Positions 1,652 to 24,436 of a DNA stretch of 24,436 bases are shown here, piece after piece. A program made the translations under genes and the position numbers. Origin of the DNA: a virus (taxonomy: Duplodnaviria > Caudoviricetes). Below the pieces are notes generated by a model. The model made no database searches. It worked only from the letters and a program-made list of their open reading frames with translations, and had not been told where the DNA came from. Position 1 is the first letter of the stretch. Every line of letters begins with the position of its first letter. The stretch lies in the IMG/VR virus record IMGVR_UViG_3300020043_007930, positions 1 to 24,436 of that record. One strand, given 5' to 3'.

Positions 1652-2473
1652 TCAGCGTTTGAGTTTGGTCACTGGAAGCCAGGGGCGCATTTTCTCTAGG
1701 CGTATGGCGCGTGTGTACTTTGTGACCATCTGCGACGATTTCCACCTGCCGCCCTCCATGATGAGCCGATCAGGTGCGCCGTTCTCGCTGGCGATGGTAG
1801 CAAACCCGCGCCGGAAGTCATGAACGCCGAGGGTGATACTGATTGACCTGCCCCATTCCCTGACAATCGAATACAGTCCGCCTGGCGTGAGCCCTTCGCC
1901 TGTGACCGTGGACACGAACAAGAAGCCTCTCGGGTTGAGTCGTTGCCTGAATGCTTTCCAGTGTTCGATGTGCGCGGCGGTCTCGTCCGAGAAGATGGCA
2001 AATTCCCACGAACCGCCCTTGACTAATGCCTGTAATATCCTGCGCTCGGTGTCTGTATCGGCTTGCTGAAGGTTGCAGATTTCGGACTCCCTGAGACCTG
2101 TATCGAGCAAGAGCGAAGCGATGGCGAGGTCTCGCGCACCTTTGGCACTATGCCGGTCAAAGGACGCGAGCAGGATTTCAGCGGTTTCCTGTGAGATCGT
2201 GCGCGGCATTTTAGAGCGGATGCGTTTCAAACGGGCGGAGAGAGCGGCGTGAGATTGTCCGTATTTCCATGCAAGATATTTTTGTGATGCCGCCAATGCA
2301 ACGCATTGGCGCGAGTTCCCCCACCCAAATGAACTAATGAGAGCAAGCAACCCCGACGCGGACAGCGCGTCGGGGTCCTTTACTTGCGCGAATATCTGAC
2401 CGAGAACGTCCGCATAGGTGCGTTTTGTGGTCTCTGCATAGGGGTGAGAGTCTAAAAAGGTTTGTATGTCCAT
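1652..2473 (-). CDS. int: Tyrosine recombinase (phage integrase, XerC/D-like)
   Basis: Catalytic motifs TGLRESE (R), VKGG (K), HDFRR (HxxR), GRW, and KY (Tyr); adjacent to a tRNA att core. Confidence 0.93.
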   Translation of the reverse strand: MDIQTFLDSHPYAETTKRTYADVLGQIFAQVKDPDALSASGLLALISSFGWGNSRQCVALAASQKYLAWKYGQSHAALSARLKRIRSKMPRTISQETAEILLASFDRHSAKGARDLAIASLLLDTGLRESEICNLQQADTDTERRILQALVKGGSWEFAIFSDETAAHIEHWKAFRQRLNPRGFLFVSTVTGEGLTPGGLYSIVREWGRSISITLGVHDFRRGFATIASENGAPDRLIMEGGRWKSSQMVTKYTRAIRLEKMRPWLPVTKLKR

Positions 2474-11789: not shown

Positions 11790-13982
11790 TTAGGTGACGT
11801 TGTTCTTGTGGAGCGGAAGATCGTCCGCGACGCCCACGGTCACGAATTGGCGGACCTTGAGGCGGCTTTCGTCGTTAGCGAACATGGCGGGGTCGATCTC
11901 GCTCGAAGCTGAGAAGATCTGCGGCTTGATGCCGAACAGATGTCCAAGCATGATGCCAGGGCGCAATTTTGGGTCAATCACTGCCGCCCAATCGTTGGCG
12001 TCCGTCCATTCAGGGACAGCCAACGGCGTGACACGCCCGCCCCAGCGGGGGGATTGCGTGGCAGGCACGTTCTGAGCGGGAGCATCCCAGCGCGGAACGA
12101 ACAGGGCTTCGGCTTGCGCGATCAGGTCAGCGGGAACCAGGCAGAACGAGGGTTTCAAGGCTTGGGGTTTGCCTGTGCCGTAGTACCCTGCGGCGTTCTT
12201 GACCATCAGCTTTTTCTTGTACATGGCAGTCGCTACCGCGTCCCATGCGGTGTAGTCGGTGCCAAGTGCGGTGGTGAGCAAGTTGATATGCCCGCCTGCG
12301 GTGGTCTGCGCAGTGGCATTGAACAACGCGCCTCCGTCCGTCATGGTGGGACCTGCGCCACTGTTGACGGTGAAGATCGCGGCGACCAACTCGGAAATGA
12401 GGCGGATACCGGCGAGAGCCAACTCGCGCGGCATTTGCATGAACGCGTCGAGGTCATCGTTGATCACGCTTTCCAGTGTCAACGGGACGTATCCGCCGTA
12501 CTTGGTGAAGTCCGACGTTTCCTTGATGTCGCCGATGCCGAGTTCGAGATATTCGCCACGCTCCGCCACGCTCGGGAGAGTCGCAATCGTGCCGGTGCGA
12601 ACCCAGGTGACGGTCTTCAAGTCTTTCTGCTTCTTGATCGTGACGATATGCTTCCACCAGCCGTAGGCGTCGTCAAAGTCGTCCCAAGCCTGATTGAGCA
12701 GCTTGTTCTGGACGTTCGCCACGATGCCAGGGAAGTTGGCACTCACGAGCGCGTATTCGGGGTGGTATCCGCCGGTGAAGTATTGATCGCCGGTGGCTTT
12801 GAGATAGGCGTCGCGCAAGCCTTGAAGCGCGTGAACCTTGCGGTTCTTGTCCTTCTCATCACGCTCGACTCCGAACATGTCGCCCATAGCGAGGGCGAAG
12901 TCTTCTTTCACGTCGTACATGCCGGTGATGCGTCCAGGACCTGTGATGTTGCTCGCGTCGTTGAGGGACGCGATTTCCTCGCGGGCTTCCTTGATCGCCA
13001 AGTTCAATTCATCGGCTTTGAAAACGCGCCCGCTGAACTGGCGGGAGAGTCGCTCCTGCGTTTTCGCCGGAAGTTTGGACGTGCTGAGTCCGGTGCTAAG
13101 CAGGTTTTGACACAAGGCAATGAGGGTTTCATTGCTCTGCTGTAGTTGAGCGTCCATAGCTTTCTGGCGCTCATGCTCGCCCAACAACTCGGCGGCGGCT
13201 TGCACGTTCTCTGCGAGCTGCGCTTCAATGGGGGAGGGTTCGATCTCGACGCCTTGAAGTTCTACTGTTTCCAGTACGCCCTCGGCGTTCGGGATCTCGG
13301 CTTTGAATTTCTTGCTTTTTGGTGCCATTTTGAGACCTCCTTGTCTCGTTTTTGATACGCGCGAGGCGCGTTGATCTCCGGCGTTTGCGCCGTTGATTTC
13401 AATTTTGTACTCTGTCAATATAGACAGTAGCCCTGTCCCTTCGGAGGCGGGAGTATTTACCGCTGAACATTCTTTTCCTTCGGGTTTGATCATGACAAGC
13501 AAGCAAGGTTTTTCAATATTGTTGACCTTGTATTTTCTGCCTGGCATGTGGGCGCATGAAAGCCAGTCACTATTACAGATAGAGCAAAGGACTTGCTCGG
13601 GTGGATGCCAGCCAATCGAAAAGCGGTCGATCTGTCCTTCGACGTAAGCGGTCATACCCTTGCGAGTGGTCAACCGAATGGTTTGCTCCATCTCGTTACC
13701 GTTCATTTGGCTGGTGAGAATGGTTCCATCGCGCGATTCGATGTCGTATGTGTCGTGATTTCGTAGGAACGGCAGACCTTCAAATGACTTAGCGAAGGTG
13801 TCGAGGTCTTGTTCTCGAAACTGAAATGGATTGCGTAGCGGTCCATTTTTGAATACCTTTGCGGGGAAGTCGATATATTCCATTTCGCCGCTTTCGATCT
13901 TGGCGAGCGTCTCCGCTTTGGGTGGTAGTTTAGGTCGTGATACAAGGGCGAGCGAGAAAAGGGTAGGTAATTGGCGGGGCAT
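11790..13982 (-). CDS. Prohead protease-scaffold-major capsid protein fusion (Mu gpT-like capsid domain)
   Basis: N-terminal 'LRNHD...FSIG...CSIC...CAHMPG...ECSAVNTPA' protease pattern, then coiled coil, then capsid-like 'LPSVAERGEY...INDDLDAF'. Confidence 0.88.
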   Translation of the reverse strand: MPRQLPTLFSLALVSRPKLPPKAETLAKIESGEMEYIDFPAKVFKNGPLRNPFQFREQDLDTFAKSFEGLPFLRNHDTYDIESRDGTILTSQMNGNEMEQTIRLTTRKGMTAYVEGQIDRFSIGWHPPEQVLCSICNSDWLSCAHMPGRKYKVNNIEKPCLLVMIKPEGKECSAVNTPASEGTGLLSILTEYKIEINGANAGDQRASRVSKTRQGGLKMAPKSKKFKAEIPNAEGVLETVELQGVEIEPSPIEAQLAENVQAAAELLGEHERQKAMDAQLQQSNETLIALCQNLLSTGLSTSKLPAKTQERLSRQFSGRVFKADELNLAIKEAREEIASLNDASNITGPGRITGMYDVKEDFALAMGDMFGVERDEKDKNRKVHALQGLRDAYLKATGDQYFTGGYHPEYALVSANFPGIVANVQNKLLNQAWDDFDDAYGWWKHIVTIKKQKDLKTVTWVRTGTIATLPSVAERGEYLELGIGDIKETSDFTKYGGYVPLTLESVINDDLDAFMQMPRELALAGIRLISELVAAIFTVNSGAGPTMTDGGALFNATAQTTAGGHINLLTTALGTDYTAWDAVATAMYKKKLMVKNAAGYYGTGKPQALKPSFCLVPADLIAQAEALFVPRWDAPAQNVPATQSPRWGGRVTPLAVPEWTDANDWAAVIDPKLRPGIMLGHLFGIKPQIFSASSEIDPAMFANDESRLKVRQFVTVGVADDLPLHKNNVT

Positions 13983-13994
13983 GGGTAGAGTCCT

Positions 13995-15359
13995 TTATTT
14001 TTCTTCCTGCGGGTCGCTGGGGTCGGTCTTTGCGTCCGCAGGGGGGGTGACGTTTTGATCTGGCTTGACGAGCGGTTTCTTCTCGATGGTGGGTGCTTTG
14101 TCGTCCCACACTTCGGCGAGCATCTTGTACGCGAGGCGCATAAACTCTTTGGAGTCGATGGCTCCGCGGTCGTAGAGTTCTGAAAGCGCGGGGTACGAAC
14201 GCGCGAACGCGAGCGCAAGCGTAGCGTTATCCCGTTCGGTGATGTCGGGTCCTTCAATCCAGATGGGCTTATTGGTGGACTTGCCCGCGACTTCGAGCGC
14301 GATCTGCGCGAGTTCGATCATCCACTCAAAGAATTCGTCTTGTTGTTCTTCCAACGTGCGGAAGGTGGGCGTCCCTGCGGCTTCGGCGGTGGTGCTGATG
14401 CTGCTCTCGCCCTCGGCGTGCCAATGCATCGGATGCCCTGCGCCGTCCATGATCATTTTCTTGATTGTGGAGCCATCTACGGACGCGTCGAAAGAGTCGA
14501 GGTTTGCCGACATGATGCCCCATTGCTCGCTTGGGTCAGTGACGAGGACCGACCCAGGCTTGGGCGGGTTCTTGTTGATCTCTGCTTGCCGCGCTCTTTT
14601 TTTTTCGGGGGTCACGTCCGCGCCTGACATTTGGACGATATACATAAAGGCATTGCGGAAGCGGTTGAGGCGTACCCGATCTTCAAGCCATGACGCATAA
14701 CGTCCGAGCCACGGCAGCATGGGGGAGATGTCCGCCTCGCCCCATGCGGAGCCGACCGGCTTATTGCTTGCGAAATGGACAATGAATTGGTCTGCTTCGC
14801 CTCTGTGTTCGTAAGAGGGGTAGGTCTTGGCTTCGATGTCTGCATCCTGCGCGATCTTGTAGGCAGTTTCCTGCTCAATATCATTGGGCAGAGTAATGAT
14901 TTCCTCGACGGACTCGGATGGGATGGCGCGCACATACAGGGTATTTGTTGCGCCGACGGTGCAAAGAACAAAGAGATTGCCGGTGCGGGTGTCTTCGTCC
15001 TTCCAGCGTTTAGTATTGGCTTTTAGTTTGTTGAGTCGGTGGTTCCACCATTCCAGCAAAAAGGCTTCGGTGTCGGGGTCGTCAGACTTGATCGTGATGC
15101 CTTTTCCGAGGATGAACGAGCGATTGATCCGAACGATGCGGCGGGCGGTGGGATTGACCCGCCATGCGCGGATCGCTTCGGTAAAAACTTCTTTGCGCTT
15201 CCAGTTGTTGCGGTCTTGGTAATAGGTGGAGATCCCGCCGGTAAAAAAGTTATTGTCCGTTTCAGGGGATGCGCCGAGGGCGATAGAGAGCGCGTCATTG
15301 AGGGCGGCGACTTCGCCTTGAAGCTGTTTGATGGTTGGCTTTTTGGTTTTGGTTGGCAT
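13995..15359 (-). CDS. Portal protein
   Basis: 454 aa between terminase and protease/capsid; 'AWRVNPTARRIV', 'GNLF', 'WGEADISP' portal-like motifs. Confidence 0.85.
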   Translation of the reverse strand: MPTKTKKPTIKQLQGEVAALNDALSIALGASPETDNNFFTGGISTYYQDRNNWKRKEVFTEAIRAWRVNPTARRIVRINRSFILGKGITIKSDDPDTEAFLLEWWNHRLNKLKANTKRWKDEDTRTGNLFVLCTVGATNTLYVRAIPSESVEEIITLPNDIEQETAYKIAQDADIEAKTYPSYEHRGEADQFIVHFASNKPVGSAWGEADISPMLPWLGRYASWLEDRVRLNRFRNAFMYIVQMSGADVTPEKKRARQAEINKNPPKPGSVLVTDPSEQWGIMSANLDSFDASVDGSTIKKMIMDGAGHPMHWHAEGESSISTTAEAAGTPTFRTLEEQQDEFFEWMIELAQIALEVAGKSTNKPIWIEGPDITERDNATLALAFARSYPALSELYDRGAIDSKEFMRLAYKMLAEVWDDKAPTIEKKPLVKPDQNVTPPADAKTDPSDPQEEK

Positions 15360-15821
15360 TTAGAATTTTCCTTGACCTACGGGGTCGCATGGGCGGTTGA
15401 AATTGGGGAATTTGGGCTGCTTGATACTGCCTGAAAGAAGATCAATCCTTTCGCTGCGGCGGTGATCAATCCTTTGAGGCTTGCGGTTGTCACGTCGTCG
15501 AAAACCGGCAAATTCTCCGGCTTTTGTGTACGCTGTCACCAAAACGACTTCGCCGGTTTGTGCTGCTATGCTTGTGAGTGCGAACGTGAAGATAGGCACA
15601 GAAAAGAACGCGGCAAAGATGGCTAATAGAAATTTTTGCGGGTCTCCGCCTCCGGTGGGCATGCGTAACTCCGTTGGGAATTGAGGCTTTTGATATTTCA
15701 TATTGCAGGACGCCCAATCTGTTTTGTTGGTAGCCTGTACGCGAATAAACTCGCGTCCCTGCGTGTCTGCCTGACGTAGCTTGATCGTGCGTTTGAGTCC
15801 TGCACCTGCGTTTACTGGCAT
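15360..15821 (-). CDS. Hypothetical single-TM protein (153 aa) between TerL and portal
   Basis: TAATG overlap with the TerL stop and TAA-ATG abutment with the portal start; hydrophobic 'FLLAIFAAFFSVPIFTFAL'. Confidence 0.65.
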   Translation of the reverse strand: MPVNAGAGLKRTIKLRQADTQGREFIRVQATNKTDWASCNMKYQKPQFPTELRMPTGGGDPQKFLLAIFAAFFSVPIFTFALTSIAAQTGEVVLVTAYTKAGEFAGFRRRDNRKPQRIDHRRSERIDLLSGSIKQPKFPNFNRPCDPVGQGKF

Positions 15822-17308
15822 TAGTAATTCCTGTCCATGTCTGCGAGCGGGTCGCTGGCTTCGGTCTGCAAGGTGGGGGACGAGATTACCCATTCCAGTT
15901 TGTCGAGTTCGGCACATAGACAATCCGCGAGCGGGATGTCGTCATGCACGAGTTCGCCGGTCGCTTCGTTGCGGGTGCCATCCTTCACGCCCCAACGCAT
16001 CAGTTTCTGCGGACCTGGCAGAATTTCGCTGGTGCATTTCTTGTATTGCAATAAGACTTCATCCGTCCGGCAACAATCGCGGAACCGTCCGGTATTGATC
16101 ACGGAAAGAAAGCCGTAGCCGACTTCTGATTTGCTCTGCGCCGTGAATTTGAACGGAAGGACGCGGGTTAGGTATTTCTTGTAAAGCATCGCCCAAAGTC
16201 CCTCTCCGACTCCGGTGGCGTCGATGATGATGTATTGCGGTTGCCAGAGGTCGATGATCTGGCATAACTGCCCGAAGATATCCAAGTGTGAGACGCCCTG
16301 CCAGCCGACGCGCTTTACTGCGCGATAGGTTGGGGCTTGTAAGAGGGGGACAGATGCGAGGTCTACATCGTTGATCGTCACGCGGGTAAAGTCCCTGCCT
16401 GGATTGCCCATGCCATCGAGGTTGAGTAAGGCTTCGTCTTGTCCGGCTACGTCGATTTGAACGGCGTACAAATGCCCTGGGATGGGTGTTTCCTGCGCGG
16501 GTTGGTCGCCGATCATCAGGGCGAGTCGTGCATCATTGAACATACCCGCTTGCGCGTCAATGCGCTCGCAAAAGTATTGCGTCTTTATGAGCGGGTGCTG
16601 CCGTCCGTGCTTGCGGATTTCTTCGTCCACATATAAGCCATACTTGGGGTTGAGTCTGCGGACTGTATCGGCATTGTAGATAAACACACGCTTGATACCG
16701 TCTTTTTCTTCTGCCTGCCGCGCGGCGTCTTCTTCTCGCGCGAGCAAGGTATCAGAGGTCCAAGTCGTGCCGAGAAATAACTTTGTAGCATTGGCATAGG
16801 CTCCCATCGGGGCTACGTCCTTATCGAATTTAGTTTGTAAGATGTCCTGGCTCTCGTTTGCTACAAGTAAGTGAGTGGCGGTCGCCGATACGATCTTCGA
16901 GTTTTTGTCCGCTGAGAGATAGGCGATCATGGCTTTGCCGAGTTTGCGAATGTACGCTCCGCGCTTCTTCCAGTCGCGGGTGAGCAGGTTGCCATCCAGC
17001 CGCGCTTCGAGGCGCATGATGCTGTTTTCGGTCTGCGGTTTGTAGGTGGGATTGACGACAATCAATTTAGCTTCGATGTGCGAGAGCAATCGAAGGAGAT
17101 ACGCCAGAAGATTGGCGAGCATTTCGTCCTTGCCTGACTGTCGAGAAATGATCACAACGAATGTCAATCCTTTATTTTTGAGTACCGAGTCGAGGATGGC
17201 TTGCGCTGGTTCGAGCTGGTACTTCCACATTTTGATACCGCCTCCGCGCGAGGTGAAGTTGTCGAAGCTGCGGAGAATGGCGGCGATGGTCTGCGTGAGG
17301 GTACTCAT
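15821..17308 (-). CDS. terL: Terminase large subunit
   Basis: Walker A 'SRQSGKD', Walker B-like 'LLVANE', nuclease motifs 'QIDVAG', 'IDATGVG', 'HDD'. Confidence 0.93.
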   Translation of the reverse strand: MSTLTQTIAAILRSFDNFTSRGGGIKMWKYQLEPAQAILDSVLKNKGLTFVVIISRQSGKDEMLANLLAYLLRLLSHIEAKLIVVNPTYKPQTENSIMRLEARLDGNLLTRDWKKRGAYIRKLGKAMIAYLSADKNSKIVSATATHLLVANESQDILQTKFDKDVAPMGAYANATKLFLGTTWTSDTLLAREEDAARQAEEKDGIKRVFIYNADTVRRLNPKYGLYVDEEIRKHGRQHPLIKTQYFCERIDAQAGMFNDARLALMIGDQPAQETPIPGHLYAVQIDVAGQDEALLNLDGMGNPGRDFTRVTINDVDLASVPLLQAPTYRAVKRVGWQGVSHLDIFGQLCQIIDLWQPQYIIIDATGVGEGLWAMLYKKYLTRVLPFKFTAQSKSEVGYGFLSVINTGRFRDCCRTDEVLLQYKKCTSEILPGPQKLMRWGVKDGTRNEATGELVHDDIPLADCLCAELDKLEWVISSPTLQTEASDPLADMDRNY

Positions 17309-17700
17309 AGTCCTAATTCAAGCCTTACCATTTCGAGGGCTTCCAAGATCGAGGATTGGACGCCTTCGGTTTTGCCACGGATGAGATATTCTGTGCGCGA
17401 GAGTCCGCCGATGCTCTGCGCGATGGCGGCGAGCGTGTTCAACTGCTGTAAGTAGTGCTGATCGCGCGACGTGTTGCCGTTGGCGTCTGTCCGCTCGATG
17501 TAGTCGAATGAAAGTTCATTCATCAACCTATCAATGCAGACACGCAAGAGTGCGATTTCTGCGGTAACGTCTGTGGCGTTCTGATCATCGAGCCGCGTCT
17601 TCTCGCTGGCTGTGAATTTGTCCGCATAGAAGCCATGTTTGAGGGCGTTCTTGTTGCCCTGCTGTGCGCCTGGCTTGCGCTTGCCTTTTGGTTTTCGCAT
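17305..17700 (-). CDS. Terminase small subunit-like protein
   Basis: 'GAQQGNKNALKHGFY' motif typical of TerS N-termini; ATGA overlap with TerL. Confidence 0.75.
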   Translation of the reverse strand: MRKPKGKRKPGAQQGNKNALKHGFYADKFTASEKTRLDDQNATDVTAEIALLRVCIDRLMNELSFDYIERTDANGNTSRDQHYLQQLNTLAAIAQSIGGLSRTEYLIRGKTEGVQSSILEALEMVRLELGL

Positions 17701-18615: not shown

Positions 18616-18618
18616 AAT
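18590..18618 (+). promoter_or_regulatory. Methyltransferase promoter with palindrome across spacer/-10
   Basis: TTGACA(18590-18595)-17-GATAAT(18613-18618); palindrome at 18598-18615. Confidence 0.7.
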
Positions 18619-18635
18619 TGCGATCGGAGGTTTAT

Positions 18636-19328
18636 ATGGCTTACCCTGGTGGAAAGAATGGCGCGGGCGTGTATCAGAAAATCATCAATCAAATGCCCCC
18701 GCACGATGTGTATATCGAACCGTTCTTAGGTGGCGGTGCTGTCATGGATGCGAAGCGTCCGGCGGCTGTCAATATTGGAATAGATGCCGATGCAGATTTG
18801 ATTGAACAAAGGCGCGGGGATACCATCATCGCTATAAACGCAGATGCGATATCCTTTCTGCCTGAGTTGGTGGCAGAACACGCGGCGAAGGGTTCGCGGG
18901 TGCTGGTGTACGCGGACCCGCCCTATCTTGGAAGTACACGCTCCTCGACACGCAAGATCTACAAACATGAAATGATGAGCGATGAATACCATTTGGAACT
19001 ACTCGGGGTGCTAAAGTCCCTGCCTTGCATGGTGATGATCTCCGGCTATGCTTCAGATTTGTATGATAAAGAACTGAAAGGCTGGCGGAGTCTGTCGTTT
19101 CAAGCCATGACGCGCGGAGGGTTTGCCGCCACAGAATGGCTATGGATGAACTTCGAAGTTCCGTTTGAATTGCACGATTACCGCTACCTGGGCGAAGACT
19201 TCCGCGAGCGCGAGCGGATAAACAGAAAGAAAAAACGATGGGTCAATCGGCTGGCACAAATGCCGCCGTCCGAGCGGTACGCGCTTCTCGATGCAATGAA
19301 CCTCGTCAGATTTGGCGAGCCCAGCTGA
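18636..19328 (+). CDS. Orphan N6-adenine DNA methyltransferase (Dam/D12-like)
   Basis: 'YPGGK', motif I 'EPFLGGG', motif IV 'DPPY', 'MISGY', 'EWLW'; SD GGAGG before ATG 18636. Confidence 0.92.
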   Translation: MAYPGGKNGAGVYQKIINQMPPHDVYIEPFLGGGAVMDAKRPAAVNIGIDADADLIEQRRGDTIIAINADAISFLPELVAEHAAKGSRVLVYADPPYLGSTRSSTRKIYKHEMMSDEYHLELLGVLKSLPCMVMISGYASDLYDKELKGWRSLSFQAMTRGGFAATEWLWMNFEVPFELHDYRYLGEDFRERERINRKKKRWVNRLAQMPPSERYALLDAMNLVRFGEPS

Positions 19329-19346
19329 GAGACCTGGTGCCCTCTG

Positions 19347-19380
19347 CAAAAATAGCGATGCTGAAGCATCGCTATTTTTG
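19347..19380. repeat. Perfect 16-bp-arm palindrome built from two motif copies
   Basis: CAAAAATAGCGATGCT-GA-AGCATCGCTATTTTTG. Confidence 0.9.
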
Positions 19381-19622
19381 TTGGTACTGCAGGGGGACTG
19401 CCCCATGCTTGACAGGTTGTATTATTGGTTCTGCGCGTGGTGGTCGCGCGTTCGGGGTGCAGCGAGCGGGGTTCGGGGTGCAACCCCGAGAAGAAGAAAG
19501 CCGCCCGCGCCGATTGTTGGTGCGGGCGGCGCTTGTGCCGACGGCATCGATGTGGCGCGAGCGGACAAGACACCGCCCGCATCACTGCGGGCGGGAGTTA
19601 TGCGGCGCGGGTCTTTGCGTCC

Positions 19623-19750
19623 GTGTAACGGCTTGCGTTACCTGCGAAGCGTTTTACCGCAATCATCACAGATAACTCGATCACTTCCAGCAGGGCGAAC
19701 CGCACGATGAGCGCACCCAGTAGCTTCGTCAGGTGCGCGCTTTGTTCCCG
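19623..19750 (-). other. attC site A
   Basis: Minus strand CGGGAAC-AAAGCGCGCACCTGACGAAGC...GCTTCGCAGGTAACGCAAGCC-GTTACAC. Confidence 0.85.
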
Positions 19751-19950
19751 CACCAATCAAACGGATCACCCATCAACTTTGAAAAACACTGACAGCAAAG
19801 ATATACAGTTAGAGGATGGCGAGTAGCTGCCAATATATCATCCTCGATAAGTGGCAAACTATCAAAATCCAAAACTTCTTCAACCTTATGGCTTGCTGGT
19901 TTGCCACAGGTACACTTTACACCAACCGAACTTTCTAGGACGTGATGCAT
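19729..19950 (-). CDS. Cassette A ORF, Zn-finger-like (CxC..H..CxxC), 73 aa
   Basis: SD AAGGAG; stop lies inside attC A. Confidence 0.75.
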   Translation of the reverse strand: MHHVLESSVGVKCTCGKPASHKVEEVLDFDSLPLIEDDILAATRHPLTVYLCCQCFSKLMGDPFDWCGNKART

Positions 19951-19964
19951 ATTTCTCCTTGTCG

Positions 19965-20090
19965 GGCTAACGGATTAGCTTACCTGCGGCGCGGTTACGG
20001 TGACTCATTCCACGGCTCGTCAATATCCATACCGAGCGGATCAGGTTCTTCGTGCGGTGTAAGCGGCGTCAGGTGAACGCTTTGTTCGGC
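19965..20090 (-). other. attC site B
   Basis: GCCGAAC-AAAGCGTTCACCTGACG...CGCAGGTAAGCTAATCC-GTTAGCC. Confidence 0.88.
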
Positions 20091-20285
20091 GTCGTCGCCG
20101 CCAAGCAAGATGACCATTGGCTTGCCAGTTACAGGGTTGTAAACCTGACCGCTTTCGCGCTCGATATAGATCGGCGCATAAGCTACTATGCCCTCATCGC
20201 TTTTTACGATGATGTAACCAGACCCGACACGAAAATCATTTCTGATAATATTTCTTTGCGCCTTCGTGAAAAATTGTTCGTTCAT
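19995..20285 (-). CDS. Cassette B ORF, hypothetical 96 aa (reads into attC)
   Basis: SD AAGGAG; C-terminal 'AEQSVHLT...' is attC-encoded. Confidence 0.75.
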   Translation of the reverse strand: MNEQFFTKAQRNIIRNDFRVGSGYIIVKSDEGIVAYAPIYIERESGQVYNPVTGKPMVILLGGDDAEQSVHLTPLTPHEEPDPLGMDIDEPWNESP

Positions 20286-20303
20286 GATGCTCCTTGAGTA
20301 GAC

Positions 20304-20396
20304 GCCGAACGGCTTGCGTTACCTGCGCGGCGATTTCTGCCGCGCACCTCTGAACGGCTACGCAGTAGCCGTTCAGAGGTGCACGCGTTGTTGGGC
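20304..20396 (-). other. attC site C
   Basis: GCCCAAC-AACGCGTGCACCT...GCAGGTAACGCAAGCC-GTTCGGC. Confidence 0.85.
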
Positions 20397-20398
20397 GG

Positions 20399-20638
20399 CT
20401 ATATAATTTGCACAACACGCCCAGACCCTTCACACTTTTTGATTACATCAAAATCAATGCCATTGCTAAAATCTGGCTCGTCAGGGACGATAAAATGCGG
20501 GGCTATAACATTTGTTTCTTTGACTAAATGCTCTACCTTTCCGCAAATTGGACAAACCGCTTTGCGCGTGCCTAGAAGAATATCAAGCGCGTCATTCAAG
20601 CTATCTTGCACGCCGCCCAATGCTGATGAAATACTCAT
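20399..20638 (-). CDS. Cassette C ORF, Zn-finger-like (CPICG..H..C), 79 aa
   Basis: SD GAGG; TAG lies 2 nt before R'' of attC C. Confidence 0.78.
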   Translation of the reverse strand: MSISSALGGVQDSLNDALDILLGTRKAVCPICGKVEHLVKETNVIAPHFIVPDEPDFSNGIDFDVIKKCEGSGRVVQII

Positions 20639-20667
20639 GTTTCCTCAATTCTGTTGAGCCAAGAGCC

Positions 20668-20796
20668 GCCCAACGGTTATGCTTTACCTGCGGGGCGGGT
20701 TACTCCGCACACTTTGCAGGTAAGAGATGCCTCCATATCACCACCACATTCAGGGTCGGCGCATGTAGCCCCGTCAGCGTGCAAGCGGTGTTCTAC
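20668..20796 (-). other. attC site D
   Basis: GTAGAAC-ACCGCTTGCACGCTGACGGGGC...GCCCCGCAGGTAAAGCATAACC-GTTGGGC. Confidence 0.85.
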
Positions 20797-20919
20797 GGCT
20801 TCAAAGATATAGAAATCACCATTGCAGGCAATGAACTTATTACCAAGAGCAAGTTCATCGTTGAGCCATTTTTCTATTTCAACGGGAGCGTGACACGAAT
20901 TGAACAAAACTTTATACAT
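20677..20919 (-). CDS. Cassette D ORF, 80 aa (half encoded by attC D)
   Basis: SD AAGGA; reads through nearly the whole attC. Confidence 0.7.
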   Translation of the reverse strand: MYKVLFNSCHAPVEIEKWLNDELALGNKFIACNGDFYIFEAVEHRLHADGATCADPECGGDMEASLTCKVCGVTRPAGKA

Positions 20920-20942
20920 AACATCCTTTCATGCAAAGAGCC

Positions 20943-20969
20943 GTAGAACTATGTTTTACGCGGAATGCA
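20943..20969 (-). other. attI-like recombination site
   Basis: Minus strand GCGTAAA-ACATA-G|TTCTAC resembles the attI1 core CCCTAAA-ACAAA-G|TT; no attC left arm upstream. Confidence 0.65.
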
Positions 20970-20980
20970 CATCTTTCTTC

Positions 20981-21139
20981 TCATAATTCAAGATCGAATT
21001 TGATATACCTTTTCCGCTTTGGTTTTACAACGACATCAGGCAGGACGGCTTTTACTGCCTTCTCGATTGCGATTTTTACCGCGTCGGTCTTGTTCATCTT
21101 GTATACAGCATTTTCGTTTAGCTTGTCAACCAACGCCAT
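20981..21139 (-). CDS. Small RHH-like protein (52 aa), paralogue-like of 1152-1361
   Basis: Manual translation MALVDKLNENAVYKMNKTDAVKIAIEKAVKAVLPDVVVKPKRKRYIKFDLEL; 'MNKTDAVKIAIE' vs 'LNKTEAIEAALE'. Confidence 0.55.
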   Translation of the reverse strand: MALVDKLNENAVYKMNKTDAVKIAIEKAVKAVLPDVVVKPKRKRYIKFDLEL

Positions 21140-21177
21140 TATTAAAAAATCGTAGTCTGTGAGATCGGGGCGAAATT

Positions 21178-21201
21178 CGGCGACGGCGCGAGCCGTCGCC
21201 G
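21178..21201. terminator. GC-rich hairpin
   Basis: CGGCGACGGC-gcga-GCCGTCGCCG. Confidence 0.5.
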
Positions 21202-21211
21202 GTTTTCAGTC

Positions 21212-21628
21212 TCACGCCTTTCCTGTGACCTTGCGCGGCTGTGCGGTCTTGCCTTCCTCGGTGGGCGCGTTCATCAACACACGCGCGCGGATGGGTTCGA
21301 TGGTGTTTGGTCCAGGCTTGAGCGTGGCGGGGTCAATGCCGAGAGCTGGCAATACTTCATCCCACACGCGGACGCCATGCTTTTGATAAGGTGCGCCTTT
21401 GGCTTTGTAGGCGGGCTTTCCTGCGTCGTCGTAGGTCATAACGATGGAGTCGATCATCATTTCGCTGAACGTGCCGACGGCGGGCGGGGTGGCGGCGGTG
21501 TGTAAGGCTTCGCGGATGGTGTGAAGTTCTGCGCGGAGTTCGGCGATCTCGGTGTGAAGTTCGGCGAAAAGTTGGCGGGTTTCGGTGGCGGTGATGCGGT
21601 CGGGTTGGGTTGGGGTTGGGGTGGTCAT
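21212..21628 (-). CDS. Hypothetical protein (coiled coil + small beta domain)
   Basis: 138-aa ORF coupled in the operon. Confidence 0.75.
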   Translation of the reverse strand: MTTPTPTQPDRITATETRQLFAELHTEIAELRAELHTIREALHTAATPPAVGTFSEMMIDSIVMTYDDAGKPAYKAKGAPYQKHGVRVWDEVLPALGIDPATLKPGPNTIEPIRARVLMNAPTEEGKTAQPRKVTGKA

Positions 21629-21631
21629 GGC

Positions 21632-22429
21632 TTAGAGTCCTTTCTTCATGTTGTGGATAAAATCGGCGGCGTTTGGGTTGTAGTATGCTGAAAATGCGCC
21701 TTCACCTTCTGATCGTAGCACGCGGAAGCCGTGCCGCTTTAGGGCTTTGAATGTGTCGAGGTCTACGCGTTTACCGAAGTACACGCGGATTCGGTTTTCA
21801 CCTGCCCGCCATTCTACCCGCGCGCCGTTTACTTCTTCGTTTTTGTCGGGGATGGCTTGCTGCTTCTCGACCTGCTCGGCGCGTTTTTTTGCTGTGCGGA
21901 TTTGCGCGGATAGGTTAGAAAGCCTGTACGGTTGGATGGGGTGCTTCTCGAAGCTGTAAGCGGGCTGCCAAGTTCTAACTAAATTCTTTTGTGCCTCGGT
22001 CAAGTCGGATTTGTCCAGGCTGGCGGGGTTCTTCAAAAACTTAGCATGTGCGGCATTGATCGCTTTATAAGTGGCTTGGAGTTCTAAAAGCATTTCGAGT
22101 TTATCGCCTAACTTCTCGACGGCTTGCGGGTCGTCGGTATAAATCGCGTCGTTGGCTTCGACGGATGCCGCGCGGCTTCGGTATTCCTCTGCTTTCTTTG
22201 CGAGTTCGTAGCCTTTGCGGTGTTTGTTGTGGATGCGCTCGCGGTAATTGCGGTCGCGTTTTTCTGAGTGATGCCCGACTAAAATCGGCTGTCCGAATGG
22301 GATAACGCTTGCCATTTGTCGCGCGTGGTTTAGCGTGGCTTCGCTCTCGGTTTCGGCTTTCTGTGCGGCGGCTAAAAGTCTTTCATATCGTCGCTGGCGT
22401 TTGGCTTTGTATTCTTCTTGGGTTAGCAT
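21632..22429 (-). CDS. DUF3560-family protein
   Basis: Signature 'IPFGQPILVGHHSEKRDR'. Confidence 0.88.
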   Translation of the reverse strand: MLTQEEYKAKRQRRYERLLAAAQKAETESEATLNHARQMASVIPFGQPILVGHHSEKRDRNYRERIHNKHRKGYELAKKAEEYRSRAASVEANDAIYTDDPQAVEKLGDKLEMLLELQATYKAINAAHAKFLKNPASLDKSDLTEAQKNLVRTWQPAYSFEKHPIQPYRLSNLSAQIRTAKKRAEQVEKQQAIPDKNEEVNGARVEWRAGENRIRVYFGKRVDLDTFKALKRHGFRVLRSEGEGAFSAYYNPNAADFIHNMKKGL

Positions 22430-22430
22430 G

Positions 22431-22808
22431 TTATTTCTCCTTGAGTCTAAAAAAATGTTTGTGGTTTTTGAACGCTAGTGCAAGCGCGGCGGCTATGGCT
22501 TCGGGTTCTTTGCAGTAGCTGTACCATGATGGTATAAGAGCGTGAGAGCCTGCGCCGTTGGGGTCGTTGTTCTCTCCACAGTAGCGTGGCGCGTCGCTTC
22601 CCATTGCAAGGCGGACGATCTCAACAATTACGGGGCGGGCTGTGCCTTCACGATGGCAAAGGGCAAATACTACGTTTTTACCTTTTGTTATATCGTGCGC
22701 GGCTTGAGTCAATGCTGATATGCCGCTGTTCTCGTCCTGCCAGATAATCAATTCGGCGGGGATGTCTTGGGGTTGGTGGTATACGTCTTTTTTTTCGAGG
22801 GTTCTCAT
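22431..22808 (-). CDS. Hypothetical protein
   Basis: 125 aa, ATGA overlap. Confidence 0.75.
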   Translation of the reverse strand: MRTLEKKDVYHQPQDIPAELIIWQDENSGISALTQAAHDITKGKNVVFALCHREGTARPVIVEIVRLAMGSDAPRYCGENNDPNGAGSHALIPSWYSYCKEPEAIAAALALAFKNHKHFFRLKEK

Positions 22809-23248
22809 TGTGCGTCCTTTGTGATTGGTTCGGTTTGCGAAATATCAAACACGCTACCGAAGATAAAAAACGATGGTTTATTTTCTCCGCCTTCGGTCGT
22901 GGCGTTCTCCATCCACGCAGGGGCGGCGTTACTGTTGGCGCTTTCCGCTTTGGGTTTGGATGGTATCCAAATGCCGAGGGATTTTTCTCCCTTGCGTACC
23001 TGCCGCCCTTGTTTTTTCCATTGCTGAAAGCCTCCGACAATGGTTACATTTTCGGCTTGGTAGGCGAGTAAGATCGTATTATTCGGGGTGAGTGTGTGAC
23101 CTTCACAAGTAACAATCATTCCGATTTTCTCGGCAAATTGCGCGCGCTGTTCTTCGGTCATTTCGGCGACCTTTGCCCATAACTGGCGCAAGGCTTCGCG
23201 GCGTTCTTCGGCTTTTGCTTTCTGTTCGGCGGTGGGTTTGCGTTTCAT
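22805..23248 (-). CDS. ArdC-like N-terminal ssDNA-binding domain protein (anti-restriction family)
   Basis: 'NTILL..Q....VGGFQQWKKQGRQVRKGEK...IWIP...VFDISQT' ArdC-N signature; lacks the metallopeptidase domain. Confidence 0.85.
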   Translation of the reverse strand: MKRKPTAEQKAKAEERREALRQLWAKVAEMTEEQRAQFAEKIGMIVTCEGHTLTPNNTILLAYQAENVTIVGGFQQWKKQGRQVRKGEKSLGIWIPSKPKAESANSNAAPAWMENATTEGGENKPSFFIFGSVFDISQTEPITKDAQ

Positions 23249-23251
23249 TTT

Positions 23252-23485
23252 TCACCATTCCTGATTTGCTAATTGTTCTAAAAATTGCCAGTCAAGCGGC
23301 AGGGCGGCGGGTTTCGCGCTCGCCTTCTCGCACAGTTCAATCCCGCCCGCTCTCCAGCGGGTGTAATGCGTGGTGGTTTCTTTGGGGAAATAGTTCTCGC
23401 CGTGGCAAATTACGCGGCGGGCTTCGGTTACTTCGACCCAATGAACGGCGTTACATTCAAGGCAGTAGTCACGATAGAAAATCAT
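23252..23485 (-). CDS. Small Cys/His protein (77 aa)
   Basis: ATGA-coupled start MIFYRDYCLECNAVH. Confidence 0.65.
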   Translation of the reverse strand: MIFYRDYCLECNAVHWVEVTEARRVICHGENYFPKETTTHYTRWRAGGIELCEKASAKPAALPLDWQFLEQLANQEW

Positions 23486-23769
23486 TTCGGTTCCCCCCAT
23501 ACCCGCATTACTTGGTTGAGTTCGGGCGCGTAGTCGTGGACAAGATGTATCATCGAAAACGGGGCGCGGAATTCCCATTCGTCGCCGACGTTGCCGACTT
23601 CGCGCACGATCGCGGATTTGTTGACGCTGTCCGCGTTTTGGACTTCGCAAAGGAAGTAAACTGGCTCGTTGGGGGCTTTACCGAATAGGGGATTTTCAAC
23701 CCACGCGCGGAGTTCGGTTTTGATCGTTCGATACATTTTATATTGACCGACTTGGACAAGCTGTAACAT
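23482..23769 (-). CDS. Hypothetical protein (95 aa)
   Basis: SD AAGGAG before ATG 23769 (MLQLVQVG); the longer called ORF is a shadow extension. Confidence 0.72.
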   Translation of the reverse strand: MLQLVQVGQYKMYRTIKTELRAWVENPLFGKAPNEPVYFLCEVQNADSVNKSAIVREVGNVGDEWEFRAPFSMIHLVHDYAPELNQVMRVWGEPK

Positions 23770-23816
23770 AGTAGACTCCTTTTGATTTGACCGGCGGAAC
23801 GCCCGCCGGATATGGA

Positions 23817-24347
23817 CTAGAAAAGCGACAACTGAGCGGGCGACCACTGCCAGCAAGAAAAGCCAGCGAAAGAGGACGCGACCCACTGACCAGCACACCC
23901 AACGGGGGCGGCGGGGATGGATGAGGAAAAAGCAAAAACGGGGATAGAGGCTTTGAGGGCTTCGCGGGCAACTGCCAGCGAACCACCGCCCGGATTGAAA
24001 AAGATGGCGGCGGCGCAACCCTGAAACGCGGCGATAGAGCGCAAGAGATAACGCGCGGGCATGGGGGCAGACTGACCACCGGCGGAATAAGTGACACGCG
24101 CGCGAAGATTGACTGGGATTTGCTGGATGTGCTTTGGGGCTTGCGAGAATGACGGAGCCACAACGAACGCATGAAGCAAAGCAGGGGCGGAGAGACTGAC
24201 GCAAGATATAACGGCTTGATCTGCGCCGAACTGACAACCAACATGCACGGAATGACCAGCAGAGACCACAGCGCCGACGACCTGCGCGATTTGTGAAGGG
24301 TTTATATTTTGGGGATGGCGGGAGCCGCCGAAGTAAATGTGTGACAT
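23817..24347 (-). CDS. SLOG/DprA(Smf)-like Rossmann-fold protein with C-terminal QLSLF
   Basis: 'YFGGSR', 'VGCQFGAD', 'RYLLRS', 'GGSL..AREA....IPVFAF' SLOG pattern. Confidence 0.78.
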   Translation of the reverse strand: MSHIYFGGSRHPQNINPSQIAQVVGAVVSAGHSVHVGCQFGADQAVISCVSLSAPALLHAFVVAPSFSQAPKHIQQIPVNLRARVTYSAGGQSAPMPARYLLRSIAAFQGCAAAIFFNPGGGSLAVAREALKASIPVFAFSSSIPAAPVGCAGQWVASSFAGFSCWQWSPAQLSLF

Positions 24348-24353
24348 ATAAAT

Positions 24354-24381
24354 ATTTTACTACAATGTAGTAAAAAAGCAA
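24354..24381 (-). promoter_or_regulatory. Leaderless promoter with perfect operator palindrome
   Basis: TTGCTT-16-TAAAAT, with ATG 6 nt downstream; TTTTACTACA-A-TGTAGTAAAA at 24355-24375. Confidence 0.7.
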
Positions 24382-24436
24382 GTAAAATAGATAAGAAAAA
24401 GATAAGAAAACCCCACACGAACGACCATGCGAAAAC

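Follow-up and report, generated by a model that had tools for sequence, protein, structure and literature searches.

The window, that is, the whole stretch of DNA that was analyzed, is the complete 24,436-bp record of a virus. The record is linear and was rated 98% complete by CheckV. A head module on the minus strand (11790..17700), with genes for the small and large terminase subunits, a portal protein, and a capsid-protease, marks it as a phage. The maturation protease and the major capsid protein are fused into one 730-aa protein (11790-13982, minus strand) in this small 24-kb genome. Four short open reading frames (ORFs), each joined to an attC site, form an array on the minus strand. The array lies between a D12-class adenine methylase gene on the plus strand (18618-19328), which precedes the head genes and is missing at that place in L001, and a block of co-directional minus-strand genes 5' of the array (21212..23248). 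These encode a 138-aa protein, a DUF3560 protein, a 125-aa protein, and an ArdC-N anti-restriction-like protein. The block is likely the source of transcription into the array. Promoter-like sites within 19200-24436 numbered four against 3.8 expected, which is no signal above chance, and an Rfam scan of 19000-21700 gave no match that reached a family threshold. The original prediction called the block an anti-defense-like operon. The single ArdC-N gene is the sole basis for this name, and the name does not carry over to other phages, in which the module follows other genes, such as replication genes in G607.

The attC sites were searched for with a covariance model of 23 diverse chromosomal attC bottom strands from Anaerolineales, which included no window sequence. 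The detector had taken 193 distinct attC sites from 205 host loci, and the 23 diverse ones were aligned. Two-sided changes are present in 11 of the 18 pairs of this alignment; they are not fully independent, since the sites had been chosen for this structure and a window-derived motif had led to 20 of the 23. When the model was run with filters off over the whole window, exactly four strong matches were obtained, at 19623-19748 (49.0 bits), 20304-20396 (45.3 bits), 20668-20796 (41.8 bits), and 19965-20090 (35.7 bits). The next best match reached 7.9 bits. The four minus-strand units of ORF and attC that had been proposed were thus recovered by covariance analysis, with a home-built host model, not IntegronFinder's own. 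A second attC detector, at its threshold, found only those of cassettes A and D in the window. The architecture of attC is present, with R''/R' AAC...GTT, paired L''/L' arms, and extrahelical bases; there are mismatches in B and extra bases in D. Two unpaired bases on the R''-L'' arm had been described for the sites in general. The host model shows them, as do A, B, and D, and C lacks the second one.

The G|TT junctions on the minus strand are at 20949 (the head), 20674, 20310, 19971, and 19632. Cassette D (20674..20948, 275 bp, attC 20668-20796) possesses an 80-aa ORF (20677-20919) that runs through the attC loop and has a Cys-rich tail. Cassette C (20310..20673, 364 bp, attC 20304-20396) has a 79-aa ORF (20399-20638), and cassette B (19971..20309, 339 bp, attC 19965-20090) a 96-aa ORF (19995-20285) that extends into the attC loop. 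In cassette A (19632..19970, 339 bp, 341 bp when intact, attC 19623-19748), the 73-aa ORF (19729-19950) is shortened by a 2-bp deletion at R''. All four cassettes are on the minus strand. The deletion had been noticed from the sequence, and in contigs of all four runs compared (4/4) the intact form is indeed present, with two additional bases behind 19746. With these bases restored, the intact ORF A would run on into the attC loop. The four ORFs had no match in Pfam, PHROGs, or NCBIfam. For ORF B there was no relative among the viral contigs scanned, and the ORF of cassette C has 11 homologues, none of them named. The minus-strand array end (19573..19632) consists of a short GTT...AAC inverted repeat (19600-19632), which encloses about 15 bases and resembles a cassette collapsed to its two ends, and then a GC-rich terminator-like hairpin (19573-19594). 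Similar array ends were found in L005, L019, L033, L034, and L058.

The start of each cassette was said to be the reverse complement of its own R'' flank. This was borne out in 11/11 positions for D, 11/11 for C, 10/11 for B, and, ungapped, 6/11 for A. Across 40 phage cassettes whose start was set by the preceding junction, the match to the own flank averaged 6.62 of 8 variable bases compared with 3.80 when permuted, and 0 of 10,000 permutations reached 6.62. Artifact or chance was rejected as an explanation of the sites.

The head of the array, described as attI-like in the original prediction, is by its sequence a host-type attI. Its core is at 20947..20964 (minus strand), with the crossover G|TT having its G at 20949. 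A host-attI matrix was prepared from 18 intI-adjacent sites, for which the consensus before G|TT is CGGTCCGCCTAAACACTA. Thirty intI loci were examined. At seven, the insertion point was validated by a match of 10-11/11 to the first attC; at 11 further loci there was just one cassette-like GTT, located 90-420 nt upstream; and the remaining 12 were left out for short flanks, no candidate, or several. The likeness to attI had been seen by eye before the matrix was built, and the rule for selecting sites did not use it. The matrix placed 20949 first of 721 GTT in the window, at 11.0 bits against 3.0 for the next, and its ten best sites among 41,926 GTW sites in 90 phage loci were all array heads. 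The 18 bases preceding G|TT are non-coding and agree with the attI consensus of the hosts at almost every base, and phage heads score at least as high as most host sites left out in turn. The exact phage pattern, including an extra ATGTACAT box, was found in 0 of 401 genomes of the order; thus the box appears to be a phage addition, as far as searched.

An integron integrase was predicted to be missing, and TIGR02249 (IntI) indeed had no match in this 98%-complete record or in any of the six carrier records tested, this one included. Two of the six are closed by terminal repeats and rated 100% complete. G467, a complete 60-kb genome closed by terminal repeats, has two heads and five attC matches and possesses no PF00589 protein, that is, no tyrosine recombinase at all. 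The window does encode an Xer-like tyrosine recombinase (1652..2473, minus strand; PF00589, no TIGR02249), which was not mentioned in the original prediction. The distance from the catalytic Arg to His is 90 aa in this protein and in its G468 homologue compared with 131 aa in nine host IntI, so the window recombinase lacks the IntI insertion. It was rejected as an IntI for both reasons and is probably unrelated to the array, which is 17 kb away. A small recombinase of the phage's own beside the array is therefore absent here, and G467 encodes none.

The phage's likely host group appears to be Anaerolineales. A 19-base motif from the window's attC arms was found in 182 stretches in GTDB (16 of 64 parts scanned). 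Among the 80 stretches listed, most belong to Anaerolineales or other Chloroflexota, and some have at least 15 matches in 16 kb. The family of Ca. Villigracilis affinis has TIGR02249 IntI above cut-off in 49 of 91 genomes, and it has attC and attI of the same type as the phage, so that a likely host with a matching intI, as had been supposed, is at hand. The terminase family of the window is present in 23 of 201 host-family genomes, which supports the host assignment. In 20 regions upstream of terminases in host-family genomes, neither attC nor the small gene described below was found (0/20), and IntI is missing from the assembly of the only host-family genome that carries the module. Only one of 40 phage cassette bodies matched a locus in a collected genome (80%). 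At one host locus, L270 (G004:C2:2318167-2319109), intI is split by a frameshift.

The same head was found in 18 copies in 16 contigs of several phage lineages. Cassette content was expected to vary among relatives, and when 17 heads were compared the cassettes at the same G|TT differed and the first cassettes had no common sequence; their first 158 bases gave no BLAST match among them. The same attC terminates the first cassettes of L006 and L010, whose backbones differ. With the 138-aa gene as bait, one viral contig and six metagenome contigs were collected, and five of the seven carry the same head with different cassettes. L003 was uninformative, with a contig that stops before the site, and L007 was a spurious protein match. 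No relatives of the 138-aa protein were found in GTDB genomes, and the search with DUF3560 yielded none among viruses. Scanning IMG/VR for the DNA pattern yielded nine loci, eight with cassettes behind G|TT, two of these being duplicates of others; L013 was rejected as a chance pattern match with no cassette behind it. With the window's terminase, attC was found in 27 of 80 loci, in 25 of these 27 at 0.8-3.2 kb upstream of terL, and where at least 3 kb upstream was available attC was there in 17 of 40 loci (near-duplicates are included in both counts). Five carriers have no window-type terminase, and only one of these is complete. A prophage-like contig of a host-family genome has the module with five attC together with another terminase and with integrase and replication genes. 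Across these unrelated backbones the attI core stays near the host consensus.

There is also a second attI-like site that has no ATGTACAT box. It is empty in L039 (1527), and in L035 (2026-2272) the same flanks enclose a 244-bp cassette at G|TT. A further case of this site type is L046:4516. Contigs from four of 23 listed runs, in two studies, were compared with the window; the sludge runs among them may be the source of this record. In the freshwater study, cassette A, exactly 19632 to 19971, lies inside contigs of 891 and 714 nt with other flanks (runs X4 and X5). The same study contains the 5' part of cassette D, ending at 20949 and with a different loop; the attI region is uncovered. The empty and filled pair, L039 and L035, and the placement of cassette A between other flanks show that exchange takes place precisely at G|TT. 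Junctions of circularized cassettes were absent from the contigs of the four runs.

Several other arrangements were observed among the relatives. The complete genomes G468 (L014 and L032) and G467 (L015 and L315) each have two separate attI heads with their own arrays, and the two arrays of G467 contain identical attC behind different ORFs. A cassette in first position (L325:4224) and one after the last detected attC (L050:5699) are 98% identical over their first 109 bases, and the rest is missing in L050. The second cassette of L005 and the first cassettes of L006 and L010 each include a promoter-like site of their own, with TTGACA, and a pair of small ORFs.

Two features that accompany attI, a small DNA-binding-like gene and the ATGTACAT box, were overlooked in the original prediction. 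Most heads lie directly behind a gene of 65-82 aa, and the heads of L014 and L015 have none. In the window, this ribbon-helix-helix-like gene abuts attI (20981..21215, minus strand). It is 2 nt shorter than its relatives near the start and is thereby frameshifted near its 5' end, with a 52-aa ORF left at 20981-21139; an intact 78-aa near-copy exists. The palindromic box (20965..20972, minus strand) reads ATGTGCAT here and ATGTACAT in 17 other heads. The gene family comprises 514 clusters at 90% identity, and none of the 120 listed has an informative name. As the only bait, the small gene gave nine viral loci, eight of them with an attI head, including all three new ones. L321, L322, L325, and L362 were reached via the small gene and not via the DNA pattern, and all have the box, attI, and cassettes. 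L363 was dismissed as a weak, broken partial match with no attI. A search of 301 genomes found one host-family genome with the full module.

The small protein had no match in Pfam, PDB sequences, or 50,697 isolate phage records, and a protein atlas search gave weak leads only. Two helices are seen in its model (pLDDT 75). The best structural matches, mostly to ribbon-helix-helix proteins, are weak; the N-terminus of TraM, for example, gave Z 4.4 with an rmsd of 2.1 A over 45. The homodimer model scored 0.47 compared with 0.00 for the best control, with runs agreeing in 98% of contacts and pLDDT of at least 71; the mark was reached by 20 of 30 solved pairs and by one of 23 single chains, and the score may reflect likeness to solved dimers. 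In L009, L010, and L315, the small gene is preceded by TTGACA and a -10-like hexamer, and the 17-nt spacer that separates the two contains an ATGTACA box. For the similar-looking L010 gene the comparison gave 31% over 59 columns (probability 1%), and the genes of L009 and L010 are only candidate homologues of the family. The palindromic box is likely the operator of the small upstream protein. Its presence both beside attI and in a promoter spacer fits an autoregulated DNA-binding protein with a repeated operator, as far as can be judged from the DNA. The likeness to the TraM N-terminal domain, NikR, AmrZ, and omega consists of the predicted strand-helix-helix dimer of about 55 residues. The small protein differs from known ribbon-helix-helix proteins in that it has no Pfam or PDB sequence match and a structural Z of only 3-4.4. 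No role of a ribbon-helix-helix protein next to attI was found in the literature searched.

The phage arrays are like the sedentary chromosomal integrons of Anaerolineales in their attC family, the long complement of R'' and start, and the attI core. In the host arrays, by contrast, intI is located next to attI, the attC are uniform at about 119 nt, the cassettes are larger, and the ORFs end before attC. The median cassette size is 375 bp in phages compared with 851 bp in hosts. With start and ribosome-binding site fixed, 15 of 18 phage cassettes have an ORF that enters attC by 30 nt or more, compared with one of 37 host cassettes (p ~1e-9), and eight of the 18 phage ORFs stop at the TAA of L'. 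A looser count of read-through gave 44 of 55 in phages and 15 of 104 in hosts. ORF tails with Cys pairs, which are zinc-ribbon-like, are coded by attC loops in the window (20677-20796 and 19638-19769) and in L009, L015, L021, L047, L050, and L093. Untranslated stretches are described to lower the expression of downstream cassettes (PMC11511950), so read-through of the loop could possibly help expression. Compact cassettes and read-through of the loop likely save space and would keep downstream cassettes expressed. Pfam matches were found for eight of 61 cassette ORFs, and four of these are DNA methyltransferases.

There are also signs of decay. The probability of the canonical fold is 8e-5 for the attC of D and 1e-3 for that of A, and in C a competing 21-bp hairpin (20341-20385) captures the fold. 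Predicted pairing of the L box is 0.98 in B and at most 0.05 in A, C, and D, and the R box is unpaired in A, B, and D. The median canonical fold probability is 0.12 for phage sites (n = 33) compared with 0.59 for host sites (n = 190), in predictions that leave out IntI binding and supercoiling. In L019, the closest relative with the region intact (78% terminase identity), the attI head is lost and four attC are kept. No attI motif was found at the array heads of L021, L031, L050, and L058. The frameshifted small gene, the imperfect box, and three attC that are predicted to fold badly suggest that the window's copy is likely slowing down or frozen. The family shows turnover, and single copies, this one included, probably decay into plain attC clusters that have no integron integrase (CALINs).

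It is quite likely that the locus is an integrase-less phage platform, with a host-type attI and four attC cassettes, that is loaded and swapped in trans by the IntI of Anaerolineales hosts. It was observed that the sites exist, that they match attC and attI of hosts, that intI is absent, and that the cassettes at the same G|TT differ, and from this we infer the use of host IntI in trans. During infection or lysogeny, a cassette would be excised as a circle, its bottom strand would fold, and host IntI would recombine this strand with the attI of the phage, which is double-stranded. Each new cassette would land first in the row with its two ends split, so that the complement of R'' and start remains. 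The small ribbon-helix-helix-like protein likely binds the ATGTACAT box, a candidate operator, and may tune cassette expression or the access of IntI. More tentatively, several Anaerolineales phage lineages could share a mobile "parasitic integron" module, composed of the small gene, the operator box, and the host-mimicking attI. This module might recruit or gate host IntI and feed on a phage-specific pool of compact cassettes with coding loops, in a setting where phage genes may become new cassettes.

An unlikely reading is that pieces of a host integron, attI and the first cassettes, were captured once or a few times and then froze, the variation now being due to homologous recombination between attC repeats and phage mosaicism. 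Close relatives with arrays but no attI, the two arrays of G467 with identical attC behind different ORFs, and the poor predicted folding and coding loops, which suggest long residence, would agree with this, as would the view of the IntegronFinder authors that CALINs are degraded integrons. However, the change of the first cassette falls precisely on the attI G|TT, a point that offers no repeat for recombination, the attI core is near the host consensus in unrelated backbones, cassette end complementarity is maintained, and an empty site exists (L039).

It is quite improbable that the cassettes are moved by a viral enzyme, be it the phage's Xer-like recombinase or an IntI that a co-infecting element encodes. 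Such a recombinase is encoded by the window, G468, G472, G473, and G477, but the window's is 17 kb from the array and without the IntI insertion (90 versus 131 aa), the complete G467, with its two heads, encodes no PF00589 protein, and the attC and attI match those beside host intI. An IntI supplied by a different mobile element within the cell is conceivable. IntI also has attG-like secondary targets. That the head is such a target, used occasionally by host IntI and conserved through the operator role of the box, is very improbable. The palindromic box is also in promoter spacers and a second site type without the box takes cassettes too, as this would require; yet the 18 non-coding bases before G|TT are close to the host attI consensus and score at least as high as most left-out host sites.

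Formally, the array is a CALIN and not a complete integron; judging by its sequence, it would work like an integron platform served in trans. There are at least two clustered attC, four in this case, with no associated integron integrase, as in the IntegronFinder definition. Of the parts of a complete integron, attI at the head is present by comparison and intI beside the array is absent. CALINs in phages are described as 17 scattered cases without an integron integrase, and five of six phage attC sites recombined with attI1 under IntI1 (Qi et al., 2023, PMC9892861). The presence of integron parts in phages has thus been published before (same source), and a claim to the first case was rejected. 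The array of the window is like those CALINs in its attC clusters, lack of an integron integrase, and DNA methyltransferase cargo (PMC9892861). In the available part of that paper, off-target or illegitimate uptake is suggested, and attI at a CALIN head is named only in a cryptic Shewanella prophage with its own intI (Qi et al., 2023, PMC9892861). Unlike in those CALINs, as that part describes them, a host-type attI is conserved here across intI-less phage lineages, the first cassette undergoes turnover, and attI is accompanied by a small gene and box. IntI1 can act in trans on class 2 integrons with a truncated intI2. These are likewise an attI platform without a working integrase of its own, and differ, as far as described, in that the broken intI2 is still present, the array rarely varies, and the carrier is Tn7 (PMC8876359). 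In the available text of an archaeal integron preprint, a putative attI is reported only beside intI. The full-text literature, whose coverage excludes most subscription journals, gave no conserved integrase-less phage attI module, Anaerolineales attC, or small regulator beside attI.

Integrons are now viewed, in the sources available, as bacterial stores of anti-phage genes. If the proposed use of host IntI is true, phages exploit the integron enzyme for themselves, and DNA methyltransferases are some of the few cargoes that can be recognized. It would challenge the view of integrase-less arrays as mere decay products and would add a candidate accessory protein, with 514 clusters, to integron biology. 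It would also offer a testable system for the origin of cassettes and for the swapping of small genes by phages at fixed hotspots. The heads would supply a set of natural attI sites for a group in which attI is poorly described. In the hosts, the attI regions of L283-L311 are themselves a ready set of undescribed attI sites, and several inverted and direct copies of an L-box-like word were found in them between intI and attI.
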